From positions 3,100-48,092 of the forward strand of contig JBBTSY010000005.1 in assembly GCA_038064515.1 (NCBI GenBank): a DNA stretch of 44,993 nucleotides. The letters run 5' to 3'. Source of the DNA: Patescibacteria group bacterium. Lineage in GTDB: Bacteria > Patescibacteriota > Minisyncoccia > 2-02-FULL-40-12 > GWA2-44-9. Every line of letters starts with the position of its first letter. Positions within the stretch are counted from its first letter, which is position 1. The notes beneath the pieces are model-generated. The model had not been told where the DNA came from, did not search any database, and was given only the letters and a program-made list of their open reading frames with translations. Shown piece after piece: positions 526 to 35,228 of the stretch. The position numbers and the translations under genes are program-made.

Positions 526-543
526 CCTGCCTGTGTAGGCAGG
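526..543. repeat. Variant copy of the CCTGCCTG..CAGGCAGG palindrome, nested in a longer hairpin (511-555)
   Basis: The sequence cctgcctgtgtaggcagg is flanked by cgcgagga and tcctcgcg. It lies between two minus-strand ORFs. Confidence 0.6.
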
Positions 544-3551: not shown

Positions 3552-3980
3552 TTATATTTTAATGCCGTTCTGGCGGAGCCCCTCGGCAACTGCTTTTACG
3601 CGACCGTGGTATTTAAATCCCCCGCGATCAAAAACCGCTTCCTTGATACCAAGACCTTTCATCTTGTCGGCCAATGTTTGCCCTAATGCATAGGCAGTTT
3701 TTTCTTTATGGCCCGCCTGCTCCGGCAAACCCTTAACTCCATCGACAATTCCGACGCTTTGGTCGGAGCCCCGGCCCTTCGGCGTCAGGACCGCTTTCAT
3801 CTTGGCATTGCCCATACCGACAAGAGTCTTATGGGTGACATCGTCAATGATCTGCACGTACATGCTTTTATTGCTTTTAAATACCGCAACGCGAGGCCGC
3901 TGAGCGGTTCCGGAGATTTCGGAGCGGACACGAGCGTGCCGCTTATTCCGAAGTAAAAGTTTTTGATTGAGGTTAGACAT
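3552..3980 (-). CDS. rplR: 50S ribosomal protein L18
   Basis: L18-like sequence (RPRVAVFKSNKSMYVQIIDD, FDRGGFKYHGRVKA) and synteny. Confidence 0.93.
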   Translation of the reverse strand: MSNLNQKLLLRNKRHARVRSEISGTAQRPRVAVFKSNKSMYVQIIDDVTHKTLVGMGNAKMKAVLTPKGRGSDQSVGIVDGVKGLPEQAGHKEKTAYALGQTLADKMKGLGIKEAVFDRGGFKYHGRVKAVAEGLRQNGIKI

Positions 3981-8584: not shown

Positions 8585-8962
8585 TCATTTTTTAGCTTCA
8601 GTTGCCACGGGAGCTGTCTCGGCCTTGGCGGCTTTCGCGGCATCCAATTCTTTCTGCCGCTGAGCAGCTTCTAGTTCCTTCTGCATGCGACCACCGTGAC
8701 GGGCAAACTTTCTCGTGTGCGAAAATTCGCCCAGTTTATGGCCAACCATATCTTCAGTCACAAAAACCTGGATATGGATCTTGCCATTATGAACGCCGAA
8801 AGTGTACCCTATCATCTCCGGCACAATCGTGCAATTACGCGCCCATGTCTTAATAACGGTTTTGCCTGCCTCGCTAGCAGGCAGGTTGCCCGCTTTTAGC
8901 TTGCCAACTTTTTGAAGCAGTTTTTCGTTGACGTATGGACCTTTTTTAAGACTTCGTGACAT
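8585..8962 (-). CDS. rpsS: 30S ribosomal protein S19 with an internal 7-aa palindrome-encoded insert and a C-terminal extension
   Basis: [11 protein letters not shown]-terminus and GHKLGEF motif. About 6 more residues before IKTW than in E. coli or B. subtilis S19, as I recall them. Confidence 0.95.
8864..8885. repeat. CCTGCCT..AGGCAGG palindrome copy inside rpsS, in frame
   Basis: The sequence gcctgcctcgctagcaggcagg is read on the minus strand as CTG CCT GCT AGC GAG GCA GGC, giving LPASEAG. Confidence 0.75.
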
Positions 8963-11515: not shown

Positions 11516-11936
11516 GTTCTTATTCTAATGAAACTCAGATTCACCCAAGCCTCTCGGCAGTGAATCTGCCTGTTTTTATTCAGCCTTCGCTGAATGTAAC
11601 TCATATTTGTTTAAGGCCATCGCCTACAAATCTGCCTGATTTAATTTTGTTTACACAAAATTAAATCAAAAAGCCGGACTAGCCGGCAATTGCCAAAGCT
11701 CGTCTGTAACAACCGATTATGTTTCGATACGTGATGAAACCAATTAGATGTTATAAGGCACTGACCCAAGTGTGTATTTTTAGAAACCGGGTGGCGAACT
11801 AGGCCAACCACTTGTGGTGAGCCTGCCTGCGCAGGCAGGCTTGTCGAACCATTGCCGGATAAATACTACAGCCGGATTACTGCCTTAGTCCCCCGCTCCA
11901 AACAATGCCTGGGGCAGAGAGTAAGGTTACAATCCT
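11516..11936 (-). other. Unusually long (421-nt) hairpin-rich spacer between rpsJ and rplC
   Basis: No ORF of 60 aa or more. Hairpins are cagattcac/gtgaatctg, attcagc/gctgaat, gatttaattttgt/acaaaattaaatc and gccgg/ccggc followed by a U-run on the minus strand. The region also holds a 20-bp palindrome at 11821-11840. Confidence 0.6.
11821..11840. repeat. Perfect 20-bp palindrome GCCTGCCTGCGCAGGCAGGC
   Basis: Read directly. Identical to the copy at 34836-34855. Confidence 0.9.
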
Positions 11937-12279: not shown

Positions 12280-12299
12280 CCTGCCTGCCGGCAGGCAGG
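12280..12299. repeat. Perfect 20-bp palindrome CCTGCCTGCCGGCAGGCAGG in the tuf-rpsJ spacer
   Basis: Read directly. On the minus strand it is followed by UCCUUUU. It is preceded by a second 12-bp-stem hairpin (12305-12333). Confidence 0.9.
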
Positions 12300-12341
12300 A
12301 CAATAAGACCCATGAGGATTACTCATGGGTCTTAATATCAG

Positions 12342-13678: not shown

Positions 13679-13775
13679 CCATTCCCCCCTGCTACTGATT
13701 CTCCTGGAAACCGCCCTGCCCTGTAGTGAAACTTTTGCTGGCTCTGCCAAGACCATTGGTCATGCAAAAGTTCTA

Positions 13776-14087
13776 CTACGGGGCCTGCTTCTCGTCCTGC
13801 TCAATCTGGTCTTTCAGTGCCTGTATTTCCCGATTTAAGCGTTCCAGCGCTTCTACTTCCTGGGCGCTTAAAGCTGCTCGCACCGGCGCCTCTTCTGAAG
13901 CCTGCGGAACGGGGAAGTTCAGAGCTTCGGCATCGTTAGCCTTCTTTACTTTGACTTCCTGTTCCTTGGCTTGCGTCAGATTGCGGTATACCTGGTAATC
14001 CAGGATCACATACGATGGCTCCCCTTCATCCAAGATCAGAACTGATGTCGAGTTCTTAAGCAGGTCTTTTAATTCTCGAATATCCAC
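13776..14087 (-). CDS. Phd/YefM-like antitoxin-fold N-terminal domain fused to an acidic coiled-coil tail. GTG start.
   Basis: The N-terminus (STSVLILDEGEPSYVILDYQVYRNL) resembles the Phd/YefM pattern. No adjacent toxin gene was recognised. Confidence 0.5.
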   Translation of the reverse strand: MDIRELKDLLKNSTSVLILDEGEPSYVILDYQVYRNLTQAKEQEVKVKKANDAEALNFPVPQASEEAPVRAALSAQEVEALERLNREIQALKDQIEQDEKQAP

Positions 14088-14236
14088 TTCTTACACTCAC
14101 TGACGAGATATGGCTCGCGTTCCGCTTCACAATGTGCTGCGGAGAAGCTAAGTGCAACAGGTCAGGTTTAATCGGTATACAAATCAATTCCTCGCCATTC
14201 ACTCGGAACAACTCGTCTGTGAGTGTGAGGATCCAT
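14088..14236 (-). ncRNA. Copy A of a roughly 130-150-nt structured repeat element (family 2)
   Basis: A 14-bp closing stem joins 14094-14107 and 14212-14225. An inner stem gttccg/cggaac joins 14119-14124 and 14204-14209. It is homologous to 26612-26763, with compensatory changes between the copies. Confidence 0.55.
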
Positions 14237-14260
14237 CCATCAGTTCTACCGTACCGATAT

Positions 14261-14308
14261 AAAAAAGCAAGCCCGCCCAACTTTTGCTTTCGCAAAACTT
14301 AGGCGGGC
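14261..14308 (-). terminator. Rho-independent terminator after ORF 14367..15188
   Basis: On the minus strand GCCCGCC pairs with GGCGGGC around an inner AAGUUUUGC/GCAAAAGUU stem. UUGCUUUUUU follows. Confidence 0.65.
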
Positions 14309-14366
14309 AAGGCTTCGGCAACAGCTGGGAAGCTACTATCGGGGTCACGGCCTAACTGTTCAAAAA

Positions 14367-15188
14367 TCAGCGCAAGAATATTTGACCGGCTTCGTTCCAG
14401 TCAGCCGCCTCTTTGACGGAGCTGGCATTTAAGGACCATTTGCCGGCCCCAGCGACCCACATCGCGATAACAACCCGGAGGTTATTGTCAACATCACGGG
14501 TATAGAACATGTTGGAAAGTCCCGACCCCCTCTCTATCAAGAGGATTCCGGCATTGCCGTGGAGTTGCCTGGAGAGCAACTCCCACAAGTGAACCAGCGA
14601 AATCTCAGCGCGGTTGCCCCGCATATCGAAAGTGTGAGCCTGCAAAGGGCCCCTGGAGAGCTTGTAGGCCTTCAGTGTTTGAGCTGGGACATTCTCCTCG
14701 GCCTTAGTTAGAAACCACTCCTTGAATCTATCAGACATGATTAAGTGATCCTTATTGGCACCGAATGTCTCCTCTGCTGAGAACTTCTCGACTGCCTGGA
14801 CAGATACACTGCCCATTAGCTCAAGATCTACGGGTTCGATATATGCTCTTTCCCTATGAAAGCTCTGATGTTTTTCATCTCCTGTCATCATTTTCTCGGC
14901 TTTCTGTAACTCTTCTGGCGTAGATTGGTCTTTTCCCTTAGTCTCTTGAGAAACATCGTCAATACTGGTCCAATATCCATCGATGTCATCTTGGGGTTCA
15001 TCCACGGCTCCAGGATCATGTTTTTGAGCTTCTTCTCTGGTAGCATACTCACCGATAACTACAGGGGTTTCTGGTCCATTTTTCCAGCGAACGTGCTTTA
15101 TGACTCTAAATCTTGGTTGTTCGACTTCTCCCGCCGATTTTACTTTTTCCTCTTTTTCTATTGGTCTTTTATATTTTTCTTCGGACAT
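14367..15188 (-). CDS. Hypothetical protein, 273 aa. N-terminal module shared with ORF 15278..16438. Unique C-terminal domain.
   Basis: 55 consecutive residues (KHVRWKNGPETPVV...SQETKGK) are identical to the neighbouring ORF. The C-terminal domain was not recognised. Confidence 0.6.
   Translation of the reverse strand: MSEEKYKRPIEKEEKVKSAGEVEQPRFRVIKHVRWKNGPETPVVIGEYATREEAQKHDPGAVDEPQDDIDGYWTSIDDVSQETKGKDQSTPEELQKAEKMMTGDEKHQSFHRERAYIEPVDLELMGSVSVQAVEKFSAEETFGANKDHLIMSDRFKEWFLTKAEENVPAQTLKAYKLSRGPLQAHTFDMRGNRAEISLVHLWELLSRQLHGNAGILLIERGSGLSNMFYTRDVDNNLRVVIAMWVAGAGKWSLNASSVKEAADWNEAGQIFLR
14931..15100. repeat. 170-bp perfect direct repeat, copy 1 (partner at 16184-16353)
   Basis: Compared base by base. 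It encodes the shared N-terminal module of the two paralogs. Confidence 0.9.
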
Positions 15189-15277
15189 GTTTTTGTAAAA
15201 TTAAATTATTAATATCTTAACTCTATGACCACCCGATAGATAAAGTCGATTGCATTTATGTTTAACCCATACTAAAT

Positions 15278-16438
15278 TCACCGAATTATACCTTTTTTTA
15301 CAATTAACTCCACGACATCAAAAACTTGATCTGGCGATAAGCGAGAGCGAGAACCGTCAGCATTTCTAGGAGCACCACCAATAGTAGAGCCTCCTCCCCA
15401 TCCAGGTTCTAATTTATTTAACTCGTGCAAAATCGTGCCTTCTTTCGATACGGGGCCAACCGGAAAATTACTGACTAGCTCTGATTTCTTTGCGATAGTA
15501 TATGCGTAACTACCGTCTGCTTGCTGTTGCATAGCTACAGCCCTCGTATGACCTGCCTTATATATGAGATCGAAGACAAAATCATTTGATTGGGCCATAA
15601 TCCAATTAGTACCTTCTCTTACTACCTCGAAATTGCGAGCAATTTCTTGTTTCGTGTATTTAAAATTGCCGGCCACAAGATCGTCAAGATTCTTTAAGCA
15701 TTGCTCAAGGAGTGTGTTCAGATCGTCTTGACTGTATGTCCGATTTCTCCTTGCATCGCTTTCCGGTTTCATAACTCCTTTATAAAATGCGTCCGCTAGT
15801 TCTGCGTCGAGAGGCTCATAGGCTGGTCCATGAGCGTCGATTCCGCCAACCGACTCAACAAGCATTCTTATCTTCAGACTATGAGCTTCACTTGGGTGAC
15901 GTAGTAACCAGACTGATAAAACGGTATCCCCATCAATATCATTTACATAGACTTTGCTTTTTTCCGGTTCGAACCCTAGAAGCAAAGCATCGAGTACTTG
16001 TTGACATGTAGCACGAGTTATTTGACGATTAACTTTATCATGATGATCAAAGGAGAATCTGTTACGCCCCACATCAAACTCAGGCCCCTGAACATATCCG
16101 TCAAGAGCAACACTGTTCTCGGGCATGTTATCAAACTGTTCTGTTTTACCACGTGCAATGACTAGATCCACCAGACTCTCTCCTTTTCCCTTAGTCTCTT
16201 GAGAAACATCGTCAATACTGGTCCAATATCCATCGATGTCATCTTGGGGTTCATCCACGGCTCCAGGATCATGTTTTTGAGCTTCTTCTCTGGTAGCATA
16301 CTCACCGATAACTACAGGGGTTTCTGGTCCATTTTTCCAGCGAACGTGCTTTACTACCCTGAATTTAGGATGCTCAGCTTCTCTCGTACTAGTTTCCTCT
16401 TTTTTTTCAACGATTGATTCGGGTTTCTCGCTATTCAT
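15278..16438 (-). CDS. Hypothetical protein, 386 aa. Shared N-terminal module plus a C-terminal domain with DHH/DHHA1-like motifs.
   Basis: The motifs FSFDHHD, DIDGDT and GWGGGSTIGGAP recall DHH-family phosphoesterases. Motifs I and II are not evident. Confidence 0.6.
   Translation of the reverse strand: MNSEKPESIVEKKEETSTREAEHPKFRVVKHVRWKNGPETPVVIGEYATREEAQKHDPGAVDEPQDDIDGYWTSIDDVSQETKGKGESLVDLVIARGKTEQFDNMPENSVALDGYVQGPEFDVGRNRFSFDHHDKVNRQITRATCQQVLDALLLGFEPEKSKVYVNDIDGDTVLSVWLLRHPSEAHSLKIRMLVESVGGIDAHGPAYEPLDAELADAFYKGVMKPESDARRNRTYSQDDLNTLLEQCLKNLDDLVAGNFKYTKQEIARNFEVVREGTNWIMAQSNDFVFDLIYKAGHTRAVAMQQQADGSYAYTIAKKSELVSNFPVGPVSKEGTILHELNKLEPGWGGGSTIGGAPRNADGSRSRLSPDQVFDVVELIVKKGIIR
16184..16353. 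repeat. 170-bp perfect direct repeat, copy 2
   Basis: Identical to 14931-15100. Confidence 0.9.
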
Positions 16439-16477
16439 AATTAAAAATTGTTATTAAGGCTGTAGCTTATCTTCGCA

Positions 16478-16509
16478 CTTATATTGTAATCCCCCCCCTG
16501 ATAAGTCAA
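16478..16509 (-). promoter_or_regulatory. Candidate promoter with a G8 homopolymer in the spacer
   Basis: On the minus strand TTGACT (16509-16504), then tatcaGGGGGGGGattacaa, then TATAAG (16483-16478). The spacer to TATAAG is 20 nt. The tract is C8 at 16491-16498 on the plus strand. Confidence 0.4.
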
Positions 16510-16565
16510 CCTAAAAACATAGCCGTTTTGGAGCTCTTTTCTTACAACAAGCGAGCCAATAGTTT

Positions 16566-16738
16566 TGAATCACTCCGGAGTATTTGATGAAATGAGCGAA
16601 AGTGAATAGCCGTAGTGGTGTTTCGAAGAAGGCCGCCCTAGTGGGCGGCCTTCTAGATGGAACGGAGGCGTGAGTGAGCTGAACGAATTTCTAAAATACG
16701 GAGATCGTGATGAAAAAACTATCGGCGAGCGGCTATTT
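16566..16738 (-). ncRNA. Copy E1 of a roughly 175-185-nt structured repeat element (family 3) abutting the fusA stop codon
   Basis: Homologous to 31469-31653. Conserved blocks are interleaved with a fully compensated variable hairpin (16627-16654). A long-range pairing joins 16605-16612 and 16730-16737. Confidence 0.55.
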
Positions 16739-21030: not shown

Positions 21031-21101
21031 CGGGCTGTGGTATAACGGTATTACGCATGGCTGGGGGTCATGTAACCCGGGTCCAACTCCCGGCAGCCCG
21101 A
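21031..21101 (+). tRNA. tRNA-Pro (anticodon GGG)
   Basis: Cloverleaf folded by hand. The acceptor stem is CGGGCUG/CAGCCCG with the C1-G72 pair and A73 typical of bacterial tRNA-Pro. The anticodon loop is CUGGGGG with G37. The T-loop UCCAACU has C at position 55, which is atypical. No CCA is encoded. Confidence 0.65.
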
Positions 21102-21104
21102 CAT

Positions 21105-21315
21105 CAGAAATAAAAATAGAGCCGTTCTGCGGCTCTATTTTTATTTCTGATGTCGCAATTACTGAACGCCGCTCGAACCTTTTTTGAACAAAACTCTTGA
21201 TTGCCGCGCTTCGCGCGGCAGGAACGAAATCTAACGCTCGGGCGGGCAAAAAGAAAGGGGGTTGGGGGGAATGAATTTTTGCCCGCCCTCGCTTTCCGCC
21301 GCCGCCGAATTTCGT
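21105..21315. repeat. Left copy of a perfect 211-bp inverted repeat
   Basis: It is the reverse complement of 23334-23544, checked base by base. It contains three hairpins: a 20-25-bp AU-rich stem, tgccgcgc-TTCG-gcgcggca, and gggcgggcaaaaa..tttttgcccgccc with a C/G-rich loop. Confidence 0.9.
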
Positions 21316-21473
21316 ATTTCGCTTTGCGAAATGCGCCGCAGAAAAGAGAGGAGTTGTGTTTGCCCCGCCCTCCCGTGCGCACACAACAAAGTTTTTACTC
21401 CCATTTATCATATATTGGATTATAATACACTCTTGTTAAAGAGTGCAATAGACGCTATATTACAACCAAGTTT

Positions 21474-22568
21474 ATGAACGGAAAAATTACATTTAGCAAT
21501 TCCAGTCTTGAGTCTATTAACGGGATAGATTATTTACGCTTGAGAGAGGAAAGTCATTACAAAACCGGCCTTGCCGCCGGAAATCTTTTTGTTAAATCAA
21601 ACTATAAAATAATCAGGCTTTTAAAAAATCCTTTCGTAAATATAATTTTGTGGTTTCTTCGCCTTAAATACGAAAAGAAAATTCCAGAAGTCCGCATTCC
21701 AAAAGAATATCAAGATGAACTTAGAGGTTGTGCGGAGGCGACAAAAATTCCATATAAATATCTACTCTTAATAAATTTAATCTACGAAATTAGGGGGTGT
21801 TCCGGTTTTGTTTTTTTTAATCCTGATGGATCCTTACTTCTTGGACACAATACTGATGTCTCAAAAATGTTGGCAAAGCTTGCTCTTCGTTACATGAAGC
21901 CGCTCGTAACGGATGTATCAATCCCTGGAAAGAATAATTTTGTTCATGTTGCTATGCCTCTCATTTTGGGGGCGATAAATGGTTTTAATGATAAAGGCAT
22001 AGCAGTATCTTCACATGATGCTGGAGGCATCTACGCTAAAGTTGTGAAAAATAACACCAGCACTTCGTGTCTTGTAAAAATGGTTCTAGAAAATGCCGAG
22101 AGTTTAGCTGAAGTTCAAAAGACAGCACAGGAAAATCTTGCTTATTATCCTGGAATTATGATTGTTGCGAGTGCGCGTGAGCGTAAAGCTTCTATACTTG
22201 AAGCTTATCCGTCAGATTTTGATTTTGTGTCTTTCACAAACACTTCTTATATTTTTTCTGCAAATCACTATCAGAGCGACAAAATGAGAAAATATCATAG
22301 AGAAGTTAAAAAGGGTAGTTTGGATAGATTAACTTGCCTACAAGGAAGTTTATCTGGAAAAAATATTTTGTCGGTTCAAGAAGCTATCCAAATTTTGAAA
22401 GACCACAGAAATGGCATACACCGCGACACAACCGGATATTCAATAGCGAATATAGGGACATTTCAAAGTTTTATTTTTGATGTAACGAGGAGTAAAGTTT
22501 ATATTTCAAATGGTAAAAAATTACCTGTTCCTTTGCACGGTAATTTTGTCAAAATCAGTGCTTTATGA
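21474..22568 (+). CDS. Ntn-hydrolase, peptidase C45 / acyltransferase-like protein
   Basis: GCSGFVFFNPDGSLLLGHNTD resembles the catalytic-Cys block of the C45 / choloylglycine-hydrolase-type family. Confidence 0.6.
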   Translation: MNGKITFSNSSLESINGIDYLRLREESHYKTGLAAGNLFVKSNYKIIRLLKNPFVNIILWFLRLKYEKKIPEVRIPKEYQDELRGCAEATKIPYKYLLLINLIYEIRGCSGFVFFNPDGSLLLGHNTDVSKMLAKLALRYMKPLVTDVSIPGKNNFVHVAMPLILGAINGFNDKGIAVSSHDAGGIYAKVVKNNTSTSCLVKMVLENAESLAEVQKTAQENLAYYPGIMIVASARERKASILEAYPSDFDFVSFTNTSYIFSANHYQSDKMRKYHREVKKGSLDRLTCLQGSLSGKNILSVQEAIQILKDHRNGIHRDTTGYSIANIGTFQSFIFDVTRSKVYISNGKKLPVPLHGNFVKISAL

Positions 22569-22771
22569 AAAATATTTCTACAAAAATCGGCAAAAATTTA
22601 AAACGAATCAGAACTGAAAAGAAAATGTCGCAGGGCGACATTTCTAGGAAGTTAGGCATGGACAGAGGGTATATAAGTGGTGTTGAAAATGGAAAAAGAA
22701 ACCCGACAGTTGCCACAGTTGAAAAACTGGCAAACGCCTTAGGTATTTCCGTTGACGAATTATTGAAATGA
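22565..22771 (+). CDS. XRE-family helix-turn-helix transcriptional regulator
   Basis: 68 aa with the classical HTH_3 pattern (LKRIRTEKKMSQGDISRKLGMDRGYISGVENGKRNPTVATVEKLANALG). Confidence 0.85.
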   Translation: MKNISTKIGKNLKRIRTEKKMSQGDISRKLGMDRGYISGVENGKRNPTVATVEKLANALGISVDELLK

Positions 22772-23280
22772 AAAACTACAGAAAAATTCTCGGATTACTG
22801 TCTGGAATTATGGCAATTGCGATGCTCATAATTCCGATTTTCTTTTACAGAAATTTGAGTGAAGTAGCCAAAAGCACCGGGTACGTTGGGTATTTTTTCG
22901 CAAATTATTTCGGCTTTGGAATCTATACACTTCCTTTCCTCGTAAAAATATTAAATCCATTTTTACTAATTATAATCGGTGCTTTTGGCTTAACTATTGA
23001 TGAATTTTTTGCATGGTATGCGGGCAATGTTTCAGAAGAACTCGACCGTTCTAAAAAATTTCACAACAAGATACAATCTTATGTTGAACGATATGGACTT
23101 CTTGCCATATTCATATTTGGTTTATTACCTCTGCCCGGAATAGTTTATGCCATATCAGGCTTTGCCGCAGGGCATTTCAAAATTCCTTTTTACAAATTTT
23201 TTCTTACAAACTTTTCCGCAAAGCTAATCCGAACAACAATAATTGTAATTGGACTTTTGGTATTTTTTGAAAAAATTTGA
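22768..23280 (+). CDS. DedA/YqaA-like (VTT-domain-like) membrane protein
   Basis: 170 aa with 4-5 TM segments. The GLLPLPG...SGFAAG pattern resembles YqaA/DedA. Confidence 0.55.
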   Translation: MKNYRKILGLLSGIMAIAMLIIPIFFYRNLSEVAKSTGYVGYFFANYFGFGIYTLPFLVKILNPFLLIIIGAFGLTIDEFFAWYAGNVSEELDRSKKFHNKIQSYVERYGLLAIFIFGLLPLPGIVYAISGFAAGHFKIPFYKFFLTNFSAKLIRTTIIVIGLLVFFEKI

Positions 23281-23333
23281 GAATAAGGCATAAATTGGGT
23301 AGAATAACATTGCGGTGTGCTAACTTCGTTGGC

Positions 23334-23544
23334 ACGAAATTCGGCGGCGGCGGAAAGCGAGGGCGGGCAAAAATTCATTCCCCCCAACCCCCTTTCTTTT
23401 TGCCCGCCCGAGCGTTAGATTTCGTTCCTGCCGCGCGAAGCGCGGCAATCAAGAGTTTTGTTCAAAAAAGGTTCGAGCGGCGTTCAGTAATTGCGACATC
23501 AGAAATAAAAATAGAGCCGCAGAACGGCTCTATTTTTATTTCTG
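23334..23544. repeat. Right copy of the perfect 211-bp inverted repeat
   Basis: Reverse complement of 21105-21315. Confidence 0.9.
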
Positions 23545-24158
23545 TTTATGCAGGCAAGGAGCAGTTGAGGAGCAAAGGCGACGAAATGCCAAAGTCAGTA
23601 GACGTGGTGCCCGACAGTAGCAAACCAAAAATCCGTCCTGCGACGGGTTTTTGGTTATCCTCACAAGCTCCTCCGTACATATTGAGGTGGCCTAGCTTTT
23701 TACTCCACGTGTGTGAGTCCGCAAGGCGATTTTTCGGAAGTCCTTTTTAGGGAACCTCACCAAAATGACCTAATATAGGGCTACAAGAGTATATTGTCAT
23801 AAATGATCCAGGTCCTACTAAATACGGGAGGGCTCATTCATAGTATACACCCTGTTCTTAAGCATCCTGCGGACAAGCTGTGTTTCTTTTGTGAATAAAC
23901 TGTGCATGAGTGCGCCTTCGCTCGCGAAGATAGCCGCAAAAAACGGCCATGACTGACTGAAGCACCACAAAACGGCATGGGAGCTATTGACAAATTTCAA
24001 ACAAACGAAAAGGCCCCCTCATCAGCAAAAGACTTAAGCTATTTAAATGTGTGGGTCTCCGCAGAAGTGCCCCACGGGGCAAAACGATATAGGAATCCCG
24101 AGTTAAATAATTTGTTCTAAAGCTTAGGCCAACGAGGAGGCCCACTGCCAGTATACTC
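23545..24158. other. ORF-poor 614-nt region of unknown function
   Basis: Only short ORFs that look spurious. It holds a 15-bp-stem hairpin at 23623-23656 and a small CUUCG-CUCG-CGAAG hairpin. Possible long-range pairings are CTCCTC (23669-23674) with GAGGAG (24134-24139), and GGCCTAGC (23689-23696) with GCTTAGGCC (24122-24130). Confidence 0.3.
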
Positions 24159-24686
24159 CTATTTCTTCCATTCCGAAACAGAACCCCTGTTAAGCATATT
24201 ATCTGCCATTTCTAACTCTTCATAGATACCATCGATAAGGTCTACGGCTTTTGCTTCTTCCAAATTTACCCACCGAAATTCAGTCATGCTTTCATCAAGT
24301 ACAACTTCTCCGCTAGCATAATCGGCAAGACATGAAATAACGAGTGATGGATACTCATCGTGCGCCTGCCTGCCGGCCCGCTTCGCCGGAGCTTTAGCGA
24401 GGCGAGCAGGCAGGTCCGCAAGCGAAGTTACATACCGGATATTCTTAATTTCAATCCCCGCTTCTTCTTCTACTTCGCGTCGAAGTGTACGTTCCAGCAC
24501 ATTATACCAATAATCAGGAGTGTCTTTGGGAAGATGTACATAATCTTCCGTGTCTAGCTTTCCACCCGGCACGGTCCAGCGTGACGGAAATTTTTTCTCC
24601 CGTGCCGCGCGTTGCAACACTAAATATTTCCCGTCTTTCACGACAATGGCCGTAATGACAACTTTAAATAGTTTCTTAGGATCCAT
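24159..24686 (-). CDS. Nudix hydrolase with a palindrome-derived in-frame insert
   Basis: Nudix box GGKLDTEDY..x..REVEEEAGIEI. A low-complexity LPARLAKAPAKRAGRQA segment is encoded by repeat 24365-24414. Confidence 0.85.
   Translation of the reverse strand: MDPKKLFKVVITAIVVKDGKYLVLQRAAREKKFPSRWTVPGGKLDTEDYVHLPKDTPDYWYNVLERTLRREVEEEAGIEIKNIRYVTSLADLPARLAKAPAKRAGRQAHDEYPSLVISCLADYASGEVVLDESMTEFRWVNLEEAKAVDLIDGIYEELEMADNMLNRGSVSEWKK
24365..24414. repeat. Expanded palindrome copy (arms CCTGCCTGCC and GCAGGCAGG separated by about 31 nt) inside the Nudix gene
   Basis: Read directly. It is in frame, since the ORF continues through it. Confidence 0.7.
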
Positions 24687-25749: not shown

Positions 25750-26616
25750 TTATTGCTTATTAAGATAATACGAAGTCCCATCACTGATAAGACGAATCAT
25801 TCCATCAGTATCAGTACGATACAGTGTTGCACCGAAATTTTCAAGGCGGGAAAGAATCAGTTCCGCAGGATGCTTGTACCGATTTTTTACTCCTACCTGA
25901 ATTATTGCCGCTTGCGGGGTAACAGCATCGAGGAACGGCAACGCCGTCGAAGTTTTTGATCCATGGTGGCCCACTTTCAATACATCCGCATCGATATCGA
26001 TATTATTATTGACCAAGATGCGTTCCACGGCCGCCTCCATATCACCCGCCAACAGAACTTTTACGTGCTTATATTGAAGCATCGCTACCACGTTGTCATC
26101 GTGAGGCTTATCAGTCGCAGTGCCGAGCACTGATTTCAGAGGATGGATAATCGTAAAAGTCATTTCGGGTCCTAAGTTGATCTGTTTTCCCGCCACAGTA
26201 TCAATTTCGATTGTATGCTCTTGAGCAACCGCTTCCTGCCACGATCGGAATTCTAATGAATCATATTGCTCTCCTGCCTGAATGACATAGCCAACGTCAT
26301 AATGCTTTAATACATCAATTAATCCGGCGATATGATCGCTATGAGGATGGCTAACCACGACCGCATCGATAGACCGATCGTAAAATGGCATCACCCGCGC
26401 CAGCTCCGCAATCACGGCACTGTCCGGTCCGCCATCGACAAGCACCTGGTTGCCATTCGGAGCTTCTATAAAGATGGCGTCTCCCTGGCCGACATTCAAA
26501 AAATATATTTTTAAAAGTCCATCCTTCTGCCCTGCGGCTTGTGAACTTGAAAACGCCAGCACGATGAGTACCAGGGCGATGATTCCCGCAATTATTTTAT
26601 CTCTATTCGTATCCAT
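25750..26616 (-). CDS. Membrane-anchored metallo-beta-lactamase-fold protein (ComEC C-terminal domain homolog)
   Basis: HPHSDHIAG motif. I chose the start at MDTNRDKII (ATG at 26616), followed by a TM helix. The upstream part of the tracked ORF is the family-2 repeat element. Confidence 0.8.
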   Translation of the reverse strand: MDTNRDKIIAGIIALVLIVLAFSSSQAAGQKDGLLKIYFLNVGQGDAIFIEAPNGNQVLVDGGPDSAVIAELARVMPFYDRSIDAVVVSHPHSDHIAGLIDVLKHYDVGYVIQAGEQYDSLEFRSWQEAVAQEHTIEIDTVAGKQINLGPEMTFTIIHPLKSVLGTATDKPHDDNVVAMLQYKHVKVLLAGDMEAAVERILVNNNIDIDADVLKVGHHGSKTSTALPFLDAVTPQAAIIQVGVKNRYKHPAELILSRLENFGATLYRTDTDGMIRLISDGTSYYLNKQ

Positions 26617-26763
26617 CCTTACACTCATTGACGAGATATGGCTCGCGTTCCGTCTCACATAGTGGTGCGGAAAAGCTTTGCCATACAGATCAGCATTATG
26701 ATGATTCAAACAAATCCTCGCCATTCACTCGGAACAACTCATCAATGAGTGTCAGGATCCATG
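26612..26763 (-). ncRNA. Copy B of the family-2 structured repeat element, wedged between the two comEC-derived ORFs
   Basis: A closing stem joins 26622-26635 and 26738-26751. An inner stem joins 26647-26652 and 26730-26735. The comEC stop codon (26752-26754) abuts the stem. Confidence 0.55.
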
Positions 26764-28314
26764 ATGCCGATAGAACCACCAAATTCCTCCGATCAGCAGT
26801 ACATAAGCGAGAACGATTATAATCCACGGCAATGAGATCGAAACAGAGGCAAATGAGAATGATGCCGCATGTTCAACGATCCAGAGCTGATATCGCGCTA
26901 ATGCCCACGCCACTACGCCGATAATCTTTCCCAGCGGAATCCAGATCATGCCGCTTATGCCCGCTATGAAACCAAACAGCATTACTGCGGGGACAATCGG
27001 TAGGATTAAAATATTTACCACCAAAGAAACCAGCGAGAAAGAATGAAAATACCCCACTAAAAGCAGGATAACCATCACCTGTGCCGAAAGCGTCATAAGA
27101 GCAATTTCTTTTAATCCCGTCAATGAAGGAGCTCGCTGTGCCCAACGCTGAAATATCGGATACAAATATAAAAGACCGATAACCGCCAAAAAAGAAAGCT
27201 GAAAACCAATATCAAACACGAGGATGAATGGATTAAAGAAAACCATCAGCGCACCGGCCAGAATAATGCCATTTTTCGCATCATAGAGACGGCCGTATCC
27301 GGAGGCGAAAAGGACTAATAGTCCCATTACCGCCGCTCGCACCACTGACGCCGAAGCTCCCGTCAGCAACGTAAAAAGAATAATGGCCGCCGTGGCGATC
27401 CAAATTGCTCTGCGTCGCCGGAACCAAAACAATAATACCCCCAGCACCGCCTCGGCGACGATGGTGATGTTGTATCCGGATATCGCCAAAATATGACTAG
27501 TCCCCGTCGTAGCAAAGGCATCTTGGAGACGCTCTGGGATCGCGCTACGCGAACCCAGAAGCACTCCTTGGATATAGGCGGCCTCCGGCTCTGCTATCGT
27601 GCCTATGAGCGCTGACTCGAAACGCGATTTTAATCCCTGCAGAGCGCGATACACGACAACACTGCTCCGCTCCCAAAGACCCAAGGATATTGATCCCTCC
27701 GCCAGAATATCGGGAGAAGAAAAAATGCTTCGAATACCTTGTTTTTTCAGATACGTCGCATAATCAAATGATTCGGAATTTTTAGGAGCTTGCGGCGCGC
27801 CTTCGATGGTAAGGATATCGCCATAACGATACCCCGCTCTATTATCAGCGGTCACAAGAACCCGTTCTCCTGCCGAGAAAGTTCTTTTGAGCGCGATGAT
27901 TTCTTTTACTTCAAAAGGAAACTGCGATTGTAATCCCCGTTCCCGAACATCTCCTGCCACATATCCCACCACACGCACAGAAATGCCCTTGCCTCCCGCC
28001 TCTCGATCGTTAAACTGCGTGACACGGCTGTGATCAGCGTCGAATTGCTGAAACCGGTAGATACCCCCCGTTGCAAGGATGATGCAAAATCCGATAACAA
28101 AGCCTACCTTCCGGCGCTTAATACCTGCGACTGTTTGTCCGAATGTGCGATGATAGGCTGATACTCCAAAAAATAAAGTCCCCAGCCCGATAAAAATCCA
28201 AAAATATTGTTCACCAAAATGCCAGAATGATCCGATAAGCGTTCCAACCAGAAAAGCGATCAGAAAATACGAGAGAACTTGAGACTTGTGCATACCTGTA
28301 TCGTACCTGATCAA
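26752..28314 (-). CDS. comEC: ComEC/Rec2-type competence channel protein (DUF4131 plus competence domains, lacking the MBL domain)
   Basis: 520-aa polytopic membrane protein with the typical ComEC sequence (GTSHILAISGYNITIV). Confidence 0.85.
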   Translation of the reverse strand: MIRYDTGMHKSQVLSYFLIAFLVGTLIGSFWHFGEQYFWIFIGLGTLFFGVSAYHRTFGQTVAGIKRRKVGFVIGFCIILATGGIYRFQQFDADHSRVTQFNDREAGGKGISVRVVGYVAGDVRERGLQSQFPFEVKEIIALKRTFSAGERVLVTADNRAGYRYGDILTIEGAPQAPKNSESFDYATYLKKQGIRSIFSSPDILAEGSISLGLWERSSVVVYRALQGLKSRFESALIGTIAEPEAAYIQGVLLGSRSAIPERLQDAFATTGTSHILAISGYNITIVAEAVLGVLLFWFRRRRAIWIATAAIILFTLLTGASASVVRAAVMGLLVLFASGYGRLYDAKNGIILAGALMVFFNPFILVFDIGFQLSFLAVIGLLYLYPIFQRWAQRAPSLTGLKEIALMTLSAQVMVILLLVGYFHSFSLVSLVVNILILPIVPAVMLFGFIAGISGMIWIPLGKIIGVVAWALARYQLWIVEHAASFSFASVSISLPWIIIVLAYVLLIGGIWWFYRHHGS

Positions 28315-34739: not shown

Positions 34740-35228
34740 CTATATTAACTTTTCGAGTTCCTCTTTTACGATACGGCTGACAGCTTGGCCATCCGCTCGC
34801 CCCTTCACTTTTGGCATGACAGCGCCGATGACTTTGCCTGCCTGCGCAGGCAGGCCCATCTCAGCAATAACTTTCTTCACTTCGGCACGAATGGCGTCAT
34901 CGGAAATCTGTTCCGGCATGTATTGTATCAGAACGGCGAGTTCTTCCTGTTCCTGCGCCGCCAATTCCGGCCTTCCAGCTTGCGCATAGGTCTCAATCGC
35001 TTCTCTGCGCTTTTTGATTTCCGAGGAAATGACTTCAATGGCCTCTTCATCGTTAATAAGGCTCGCGTTTTCTAGATCGTTTGTCGCGCCCGCCTTGCTA
35101 AGCTTGCTTCGCTTTTCAAGTTCTCGATTTTTAATTGCGGAAAGAAGCGAATTTAACACGGTCCGCTTTTTGCTATCCCCAGCTTTGAGAGCTTCTTTTA
35201 CGTCCGACAAAAGTCTTTCCTTAAGCAT
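34740..35228 (-). CDS. GatB/YqeY-domain protein with a palindrome-encoded LPAQAG insert
   Basis: YqeY-like sequence. The palindrome 34836-34855 reads CTG CCT GCG CAG GCA GGC in frame. Confidence 0.8.
   Translation of the reverse strand: MLKERLLSDVKEALKAGDSKKRTVLNSLLSAIKNRELEKRSKLSKAGATNDLENASLINDEEAIEVISSEIKKRREAIETYAQAGRPELAAQEQEELAVLIQYMPEQISDDAIRAEVKKVIAEMGLPAQAGKVIGAVMPKVKGRADGQAVSRIVKEELEKLI
34836..34855. repeat. Perfect 20-bp palindrome GCCTGCCTGCGCAGGCAGGC inside a coding sequence
   Basis: Identical to 11821-11840. Confidence 0.9.

Follow-up and report, generated by a model that had tools for sequence, protein, structure and literature searches.

The part of the genome studied here is a single stretch of DNA of 45 kb, which is called the window in the following. 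The lineage belongs to the CPR (Patescibacteria), and the best named relatives of its S19 and YqeY proteins come from Candidatus Yanofskybacteria. Minus-strand genes predominate, and the str/S10/spc ribosomal operons are followed in turn by ComEC, class II ribonucleotide reductase, FtsZ, FtsA, YbeY and YqeY, with ComEC and metallo-beta-lactamase domains located at 25750-28314. As the comparison genome we used a contig of another sample (L001), which is 93.5% identical to the window over positions 1-20916, where the similarity stops. An Rfam search of the whole window at gathering thresholds returned three tRNAs and nothing else, and a search of the spacer region at E <= 1 gave no relevant match.

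Two other regions of the window were observed. In the fusA-tuf interval, a 3-kb segment (13679-16726) is missing from L001, which has a 122-codon Open Reading Frame (ORF) instead; the segment contains ORFs of 273 and 386 residues without Pfam match and a weak Phd/YefM-like ORF (13776-14087). After tRNA-Pro (21031-21102) there are long inverted repeats, at 21099-21295 and 23354-23544, in which two hairpins are perfect and have arms of 20 to 26 nt. They bracket three plus-strand ORFs of lower GC content, among them AAT/C45-like and VTT/DedA-like proteins, and the region 21031-23750 may be an inserted cassette.

The subject of this work is a short GC-rich palindrome that is repeated in the window. 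Its 9-mer CCTGCCTGC occurs nine times, while 0.17 occurrences are expected from dinucleotide-preserving shuffles, and none of 100 shuffles reaches nine. At the scope of the window, the motif is thus more frequent than composition predicts, as the preliminary description of this DNA had supposed. The nine occurrences make up six palindromes, and a decayed copy in the uL18 gene is the seventh (Table 1). On re-reading of the sequence, the coordinates reported before for all six palindromes were correct, and so was the assignment of the intergenic copies to the tuf-rpsJ and rpsJ-rplC spacers. Coding sequence holds four of the seven copies, each located at a loop, and it was confirmed that the copies in S19, Nudix and YqeY, all on the same strand, share the phase CTG CCT GC.

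Table 1. Palindrome copies in the window, and tRNA-linked GIY-YIG cassettes and double hairpins in other genomes
Feature	Position	Strand	Context
Perfect 20-bp palindrome CCTGCCTGCCGGCAGGCAGG (canonical unit)	12280-12299		Intergenic, tuf-rpsJ spacer
Perfect 20-bp palindrome GCCTGCCTGCGCAGGCAGGC (18-mer core)	11821-11840		Intergenic, long rpsJ-rplC spacer
Perfect 20-bp palindrome GCCTGCCTGCGCAGGCAGGC	34836-34855	minus	In YqeY-like gene 34740-35228, read L-P-A-Q-A-G
Variant copy CCTGCCTGTGTAGGCAGG	526-543		Intergenic, tip of host terminator hairpin
21-nt variant copy, 7-bp arms around CGCTAGC	8864-8885	minus	In S19 gene 8585-8962, read L-P-A-S-E-A-G
Expanded 50-nt copy, arms 32 nt apart (30 further nt enclosed)	24365-24414	minus	In Nudix gene 24159-24686
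Decayed copy TTGCCGGAGCAGGCGGGC	3711-3728	minus	In uL18 gene 3552-3980, read L-P-E-Q-A-G
tRNA/GIY-YIG cassette	L061 2100-2480		
tRNA/GIY-YIG cassette	L310 1440-1850		
tRNA/GIY-YIG cassette	L314 940-1320		
tRNA/GIY-YIG cassette	L318 900-1310		
tRNA/GIY-YIG cassette	L120 3150-3640		
tRNA/GIY-YIG cassette	L288 1440-1860		
tRNA/GIY-YIG cassette	L298 1440-2520		
tRNA/GIY-YIG cassette	L315 940-1350		
Double hairpin	L087	minus	About 60 nt upstream of GIY-YIG start 6903
Double hairpin	L298/L302 1440-1480		
Double hairpin	L315 950-985		

For S19, the window protein was compared with its best 120 relatives. The seven residues are absent from 113 of these 121 proteins, while the other 8 are longer by exactly seven residues at one common site, which lies between the first helix and the first strand. 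S19 had been described as about 6 residues longer before its IKTW block; the orthologs support an insertion there, and its size is seven residues. By alignment, the S19 chains in the PDB are 6 residues shorter at the insert point. The AlphaFold model puts the insert in the coil between helix and strand, with low confidence (mean pLDDT 59).

At the DNA level, the S19 copies form a decay series. The window has CCTGCCTGCTAGCGAGGCAGG, L001 has CCTGCCTGCCGGCGAGGCAGG, the canonical 20-mer with a single base added, and L003 and L313 have CCTGCCTACCGGACAGGCAGG and TTTGTCTTCCGGGCAAGCAAG, respectively; in L004 the seven residues are kept and the palindrome is gone, and the empty site is present in L312. 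One distant S19 (P0019) carries seven residues encoded by non-palindromic DNA, a finding which, according to the preliminary description, would speak against insertion. However, it fits the decay of an old copy because intermediate stages also occur. Over time, point mutations erode the palindrome, and the extra residues stay. In a neighbour-joining tree, for which S19 is too short to decide between gain and loss, the carriers of the insert are scattered among non-carriers. Besides the insert, S19 of this lineage (8585-8962) is extended at its C-terminus by about 30 residues, among which Ala, Lys and Glu are abundant and for which a helix is predicted; the extension is common to all 120 close relatives and missing from S19 of solved ribosome structures.

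YqeY was compared with 120 orthologs and also with B. subtilis YqeY (1NG6). Most orthologs (112 of 120), including the closest one (86% identical), read ..PKDMGKVIG.. and lack the palindrome peptide. The closest ortholog has VHPQGPKDMG at the place of MGLPAQAG in the window, a net change of -2 residues, so that LPAQAG is no net addition to this protein, contrary to what was first proposed. A clean insertion of seven residues is found in P0245 (KDMG-LPAGQAG-KVIG), and the proteins of the window, P0253 and P0300 have the palindrome peptide plus a loss of 5 upstream residues. The carriers are again scattered among non-carriers, and this scatter in S19 and YqeY calls for one of three histories: several gains at a single site, several precise losses, or recombinational spread. 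In both genes, lineages dispersed over the tree have the copy at one and the same codon boundary. Such a shared boundary needs strong target preference, repeated precise loss or recombination spread, and it counts against the reading that we favour below. A further YqeY ortholog (L129 6519-7046) has a long insert, GSASSLQAGSAPSTSPGQASSLQANSGQAGP, at the same loop, which looks like several decayed palindrome copies in tandem.

The Nudix protein is about 15 residues longer than its orthologs in L137 and L134, a net gain that replaces the 17 residues given before. Its expanded copy is predicted to form one long hairpin (-41.5 kcal/mol, z = -3.5), and the 30 extra nt begin after CCTGCCTGCCG, the same position at which one copy is nested inside another in L036 and L068. 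In uL18, the decayed copy lies within an extra segment of 17-24 residues, and L001 has the better-preserved CCTGCCGGCGCAGGCGGG, read LPAQAG. As for the earlier idea that the palindromes colonise protein genes in frame, like the Rickettsia palindromic elements (RPEs), the orthologs and the 93.5%-identical genome support it, S19 included, but the YqeY copy replaces residues. Coding copies persist in variable loops, at sites where the gene has changed in net length by a multiple of three.

Outside the genes, the tuf-rpsJ site reads CTTATTGT, CCTGCCTGCCGGCAGGCAGG and TCCTT in the window and CTTATTGTTCCTT in L001, which is a clean 20-nt indel without target duplication. Copies have therefore been gained or lost between genomes that are 93.5% identical, and insertion takes place without target-site duplication. 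This copy is 16 nt ahead of the rpsJ start, directly after the terminator-like hairpin of tuf (12299-12339), and itself scores as terminator-like, being a hairpin followed by TCCTTTT. At rpsJ-rplC, L001 has a 26-nt, largely non-palindromic stretch instead of the 20-mer, in which only the right arm is similar. At this site and in YqeY, the palindrome takes the place of host sequence of similar length; simple copy-in transposition does not predict such a replacement, which counts against the reading favoured below.

The copy at 526-543 is enclosed by an outer stem (510-518 with 547-555), has a U-run on the minus strand (500-509) and lies downstream of a minus-strand ORF (581-1138); the composite hairpin has a predicted energy of -37.6 kcal/mol (z = -5.3). 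As judged from sequence only, this composite hairpin and the tuf-rpsJ copy fit the pattern of an intrinsic terminator, a GC stem-loop plus U-tract behind a gene, a pattern not applicable to the coding copies. It had been suggested that the copies in the two ribosomal spacers act as attenuators. Of these, only the tuf-rpsJ copy has a hairpin with a U-tract, and since it is missing from the close relative L001, it is not a conserved regulator. The rpsJ-rplC spacer itself is unusually long in this lineage, 310-420 nt without Rfam match (window 11516-11936; L001 7088-7447; L004 7061-7373), and in the window it has 68 nt more than in L001, with a 14-bp AT-rich hairpin (11637-11668) and repeated CAGGCAGATT.

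A scan of one genome per species with the pattern CCTGCCTGC(N0-3)GCAGGCAGG gave at least 120 loci, and the proportions drawn from it are rough. Among the matches listed, by record titles, about 34 loci are from CPR (many classes), 30 from Bacteroidota, including cultured isolates, and 6 from Omnitrophota, and the rest are from Gamma- and Deltaproteobacteria, Planctomycetota, Acidobacteriota and others; no Bacillota, Actinomycetota, Cyanobacteria or Archaea are among these matches. In viral contigs, the palindrome pattern was found in 78 stretches, compared with 3 for an inside-out control (arms swapped) and 1 for a reversed-arm control, both matched in composition, so the palindrome is specifically over-represented there. 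With the identical 20-mer in many phyla and phages, the motif is not particular to this lineage. In the relatives of the lineage it is sparse: 27 copies were counted in about 860 kb of DNA from 80 relatives together with L001-L005 and the window (6 of them in the window), versus 1-9 per shuffle. The exact 18-22-mer strings have no occurrence in the searchable literature, and the topics of in-frame palindromes in CPR, GC-rich palindromes and GIY-YIG genes with tRNA lead there only to general work on REPs, RPEs and mitochondria. The palindrome and its spread have apparently no earlier description in that literature.

Several arrangements in the phage and tRNA sequences were observed beside the scan. 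Two contigs of SU10-like phages (L267 1-11883 and L250 2600-10720) are dense in the palindrome or in CCTG[CT]CTG variants and contain up to about 20 palindromes of the type CCTG[CT]CTG..CAG[GA]CAGG in 12 kb; in L250, which is GC-rich, some of them are preceded by GTAG and arranged as inverted pairs. The ORFs of these two contigs encode portal, terminase and adaptor proteins, and no recombinase was found among them. In another viral contig (L255 2240-2340), a tRNA-Met-like gene has the 20-mer exactly in the variable loop, which would give the tRNA a long extra arm like that of a class II tRNA. In L030 (4010-4225), a palindrome-bearing 5' fragment of a tRNA comes first, a complete tRNA-Met next and a 3' fragment last. 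The acceptor strand of this 3' fragment matches the 5' fragment, and the whole looks like a split or nested tRNA arrangement.

The anatomy of the element was derived from 124 copies in 120 other genomes, among the matches listed. Conservation covers precisely the 20-mer. In 78 of the 124 copies CG forms the centre, and the remaining centres are shorter or odd (none, or a single C, T, G or A), with constant arms. No conserved flank or target motif was found in these copies, no GTAG or CGTC tag is present beside them or beside the window copies, and flanking direct repeats are no more frequent than at control positions. A host stem of at least 7 bp encloses 12% of the copies versus 1.8% of control positions; copies thus lie in host hairpin loops more often than by chance, and they nest in each other. 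Arms bounding a longer element would show a recurrent spacing, and none was found in the 2.6 Mb of DNA examined.

In other CPR genomes, the palindrome is in frame in FtsK, where it sits in a variable loop, and in topoisomerase I (TopA), FtsW/RodA and a PMT_2 glycosyltransferase. The L-P-A phase is used by 11 of 15 copies in long ORFs, and coding copies in general are translated mostly in the Cys-free phase L-P-A-(G-R)-Q-A-G. Since the other two phases encode cysteine, the shared phase is probably due to selection on the peptide; the reading phase would then be set by selection and not by the insertion mechanism.

No mobilising enzyme was found in the window, nor a transposase among the window ORFs scanned, and all-against-all ORF clustering gave no gene common to the 120 palindrome loci. 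A recurrent neighbour of 145 residues was considered as a RAYT and rejected, as it is an Rrf2 regulator.

In other genomes, small GIY-YIG genes (77-100 codons) were observed directly beside tRNA genes (Lys, Asn, Arg, Ser, Leu), together with a duplicated piece of the tRNA, from its 5' or 3' part, with an end close to the anticodon loop. These cassettes look like tRNA-gene-targeting mobile elements in CPR, Omnitrophota and Bacteroidota, and would be a seemingly uncharted kind of tRNA-gene parasite. GIY-YIG genes without the 20-mer have a conserved double hairpin in the 5' leader, CAGCCnnnGGCTG beside TCCGCCnnnGGCGGA in either order, which may constitute a separate RNA or DNA motif.

The palindrome is found at such cassettes. 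For example, in L061 (WWE3) it lies in a duplicated 5' tRNA-Lys fragment, immediately upstream of a GIY-YIG gene of 79 codons, for which the anticodon loop is the insertion point. The same layout occurs with tRNA-Asn in Omnitrophica and a viral contig (L310, L311, L274) and with tRNA-Arg in Dokdonia (L314) and in L318-L321, a 3' version occurs with tRNA-Leu in Algoriphagus (L120, L308, L309), and in a non-tRNA case (L096) palindrome and GIY-YIG are located in an hsdS gene. The palindrome is at most 50 nt from the small GIY-YIG gene in 6 of 10 independent cassettes, and when five cassettes were picked blind, that is, with the presence of the palindrome not known beforehand, two had it. The remaining cassettes have different hairpins at the same place, and a hairpin, be it the palindrome or a different double hairpin, always lies between the tRNA fragment and the nuclease ORF.

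Those members of this GIY-YIG family that carry a name belong to CPR, Omnitrophota and Bacteroidota, which are the phyla richest in the palindrome among the matches listed. Neither the window nor about 860 kb of DNA from related Paceibacteria contains a GIY-YIG gene; the copies of the window stand alone, and none of the three tRNA genes of the window is near any of them. Adjacency and co-distribution make the connection between nuclease and palindrome a lead, and the small tRNA-associated GIY-YIG family is the only candidate mobilising enzyme to which the data point.

From the above, we consider it probable (about 0.6) that the palindrome is a non-autonomous, REP/RPE-like insertional hairpin of 18-21 bp, sometimes nested to about 50 bp, which is tolerated in protein loops and host hairpins. 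Among known elements, its nearest counterparts are REPs, RPEs and mitochondrial GC clusters. New copies would be generated via a hairpin of single-stranded DNA, which a trans-acting enzyme would make or move. The intergenic copies would be largely neutral riders that are able to add a terminator-like hairpin. A wider proposal is that the palindrome is the product or passenger of an undescribed cross-phylum system, in which small tRNA-targeting GIY-YIG nucleases create or mobilise one fixed hairpin that spreads through genomes and phages and writes LPAGRQ or LPAQAG into the loops of essential proteins, ribosomal proteins included. We put this forward as a tentative idea of rather low probability.

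It is unlikely that the palindrome is instead a repair scar, a filler made afresh at double-strand breaks, such as GIY-YIG cuts, and not copied from existing copies. In such a process the same tail of about 10 nt (..CCTGCCTGCC) would be added to both 3' ends and the ends joined, so that the palindrome is fixed, its centre varies and a few flanking host bases are at times lost. The varying length of the centre between constant arms, the absence of target duplication, the loss of host bases at the rpsJ-rplC and YqeY sites, and the six independent cassettes with the palindrome in a tRNA fragment right beside a GIY-YIG gene all agree with this process. However, we know of no bacterial activity that adds a fixed tail to DNA ends, and no such enzyme was seen in this analysis. 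Moreover, nested and expanded copies are explained equally by the insertion of existing copies, and in YqeY the clean insertion (P0245) comes first and the deletion is a separate step.

The palindrome could also be a selected cis-acting signal, namely a terminator or attenuator, an RNA-stabilising stem-loop or a site for a dimeric protein, kept for its function and not by selfish spread. The coding location of four of the seven window copies, at loops, makes this quite unlikely, and one identical 20-mer in many phyla is not expected of a host-specific signal. The tuf-rpsJ copy, with its GC stem followed by TCCTTTT, would suit such a role, but it is missing from the 93.5%-identical genome, and the positions of copies are not conserved among relatives. 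What remains in favour of a signal is the 526 copy capping a terminator hairpin, the constant hairpin between tRNA fragment and nuclease ORF in the GIY-YIG cassettes, and the two phages dense in related intergenic palindromes.

It is improbable that the palindrome belongs to an ordinary REP/REPIN family and is mobilised by a RAYT (IS200-like tyrosine transposase) from another part of the genome, although the size, the palindromic form and the repetition match REPs. REPs have a conserved GTAG or CGTC tetranucleotide at one end; they are often located close to the ends of genes, and some lie within ORFs or within other small palindromes (PMC3733652). These locations are shared here, and in phage L250 the copies preceded by GTAG in inverted pairs point the same way; but neither the tag nor another conserved flank accompanies the window copies or the 124 copies of 120 genomes, the copies are single and not in doublets, the sequence is identical across phyla, and no Y1-transposase-like gene was seen among the recurring neighbours of the 120 loci.

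That the palindrome serves as a DNA uptake signal for the competence machinery is very improbable. The window encodes ComEC, and the uptake sequences of Neisseria are often inverted pairs that form terminators, but the copies found here arise by insertion and not by substitution, the same motif is present in unrelated phyla and phages, and its density in relatives is low. A sequencing or assembly artefact, e.g. a palindromic adapter or linker, might explain the same short palindrome in many unrelated assemblies, but it is extremely unlikely in view of copies in frame inside essential genes, point-mutation differences between samples (window versus L001), graded evolutionary decay and presence in the genomes of cultured isolates.

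If the palindrome is an insertional hairpin as we propose, a mobile unit of only 20 bp would be able to colonise the most conserved genes of genome-reduced bacteria and to lengthen ribosomal proteins. Its spread across phyla and phages implies that many lineages have in common an enzyme of fixed sequence specificity or else a repair pathway. Palindrome and candidate nuclease are both present in cultured Bacteroidota (Dokdonia, Algoriphagus), which makes the proposal testable in the laboratory. The stereotyped inserts can be used as strain-typing markers, and in CPR genomes they also give rise to artefacts in annotations and alignments.

Compared with known systems, the palindrome is set apart from MITEs, which are 50-500 bp long and have terminal inverted repeats matching an IS, by its size and by the lack of target duplication at tuf-rpsJ, the sole site with an empty allele in a close relative, and from DNA uptake sequences, which are species-specific, accumulate by substitution and reach high density, by its origin through insertion, its cross-phylum motif and its sparseness in relatives. 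The GC clusters of yeast mitochondria are organellar sequences of 30-50 bp in an AT-rich background, and an optional cluster is in frame in var1, a ribosomal protein gene. Like them, the palindrome is short, GC-rich and polymorphic between strains, encodes no enzyme and can sit in frame in a ribosomal protein gene; unlike it, the organellar clusters are longer (30-50 bp), have other sequences and prefer targets with flanking motifs. SegB of phage T4 is encoded by a free-standing GIY-YIG homing endonuclease gene in a tRNA cluster (PMC2330249). The palindrome in other genomes adjoins small GIY-YIG genes inserted at tRNA genes in a similar way, whereas the cassettes seen in this analysis are bacterial, have 77-100 codons and duplicate part of the tRNA, and nothing similar is in the window.

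With REPs and REPINs, whose units measure about 20-40 bp, the palindrome has in common short GC-rich repeated palindromes (seven copies in 45 kb of short repeated units), no target duplication and possible RNA hairpins. It differs in lacking the GTAG/CGTC tag and the doublet arrangement, in that no RAYT, the gene of which is typically flanked by the repeat in REP systems, was seen among the window ORFs scanned or the neighbours of the 120 loci, and in that over half of the window copies are in coding sequence. Known REP families are species-specific, whereas this 20-mer is identical in CPR, Omnitrophota, Bacteroidota, Planctomycetota, Proteobacteria, Acidobacteriota and phage contigs. The RPEs, which are about 100-150 bp long and confined to Rickettsia, are likewise palindromic repeats in frame in functional protein genes that add a peptide at tolerated sites, and no mobilising enzyme is assigned in either case. 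The in-frame copies of this kind are those in S19, Nudix, YqeY and uL18 in the window and in FtsK, TopA and FtsW in other CPR genomes. The palindrome is separated from RPEs by size, with units of 18-21 bp (50 bp in the largest copy) that add 6-7 residues, and it is present in many phyla. In-frame REPs and RPEs are already known (PMC3733652), and the palindrome is set apart from them by the unusual spread across phyla.
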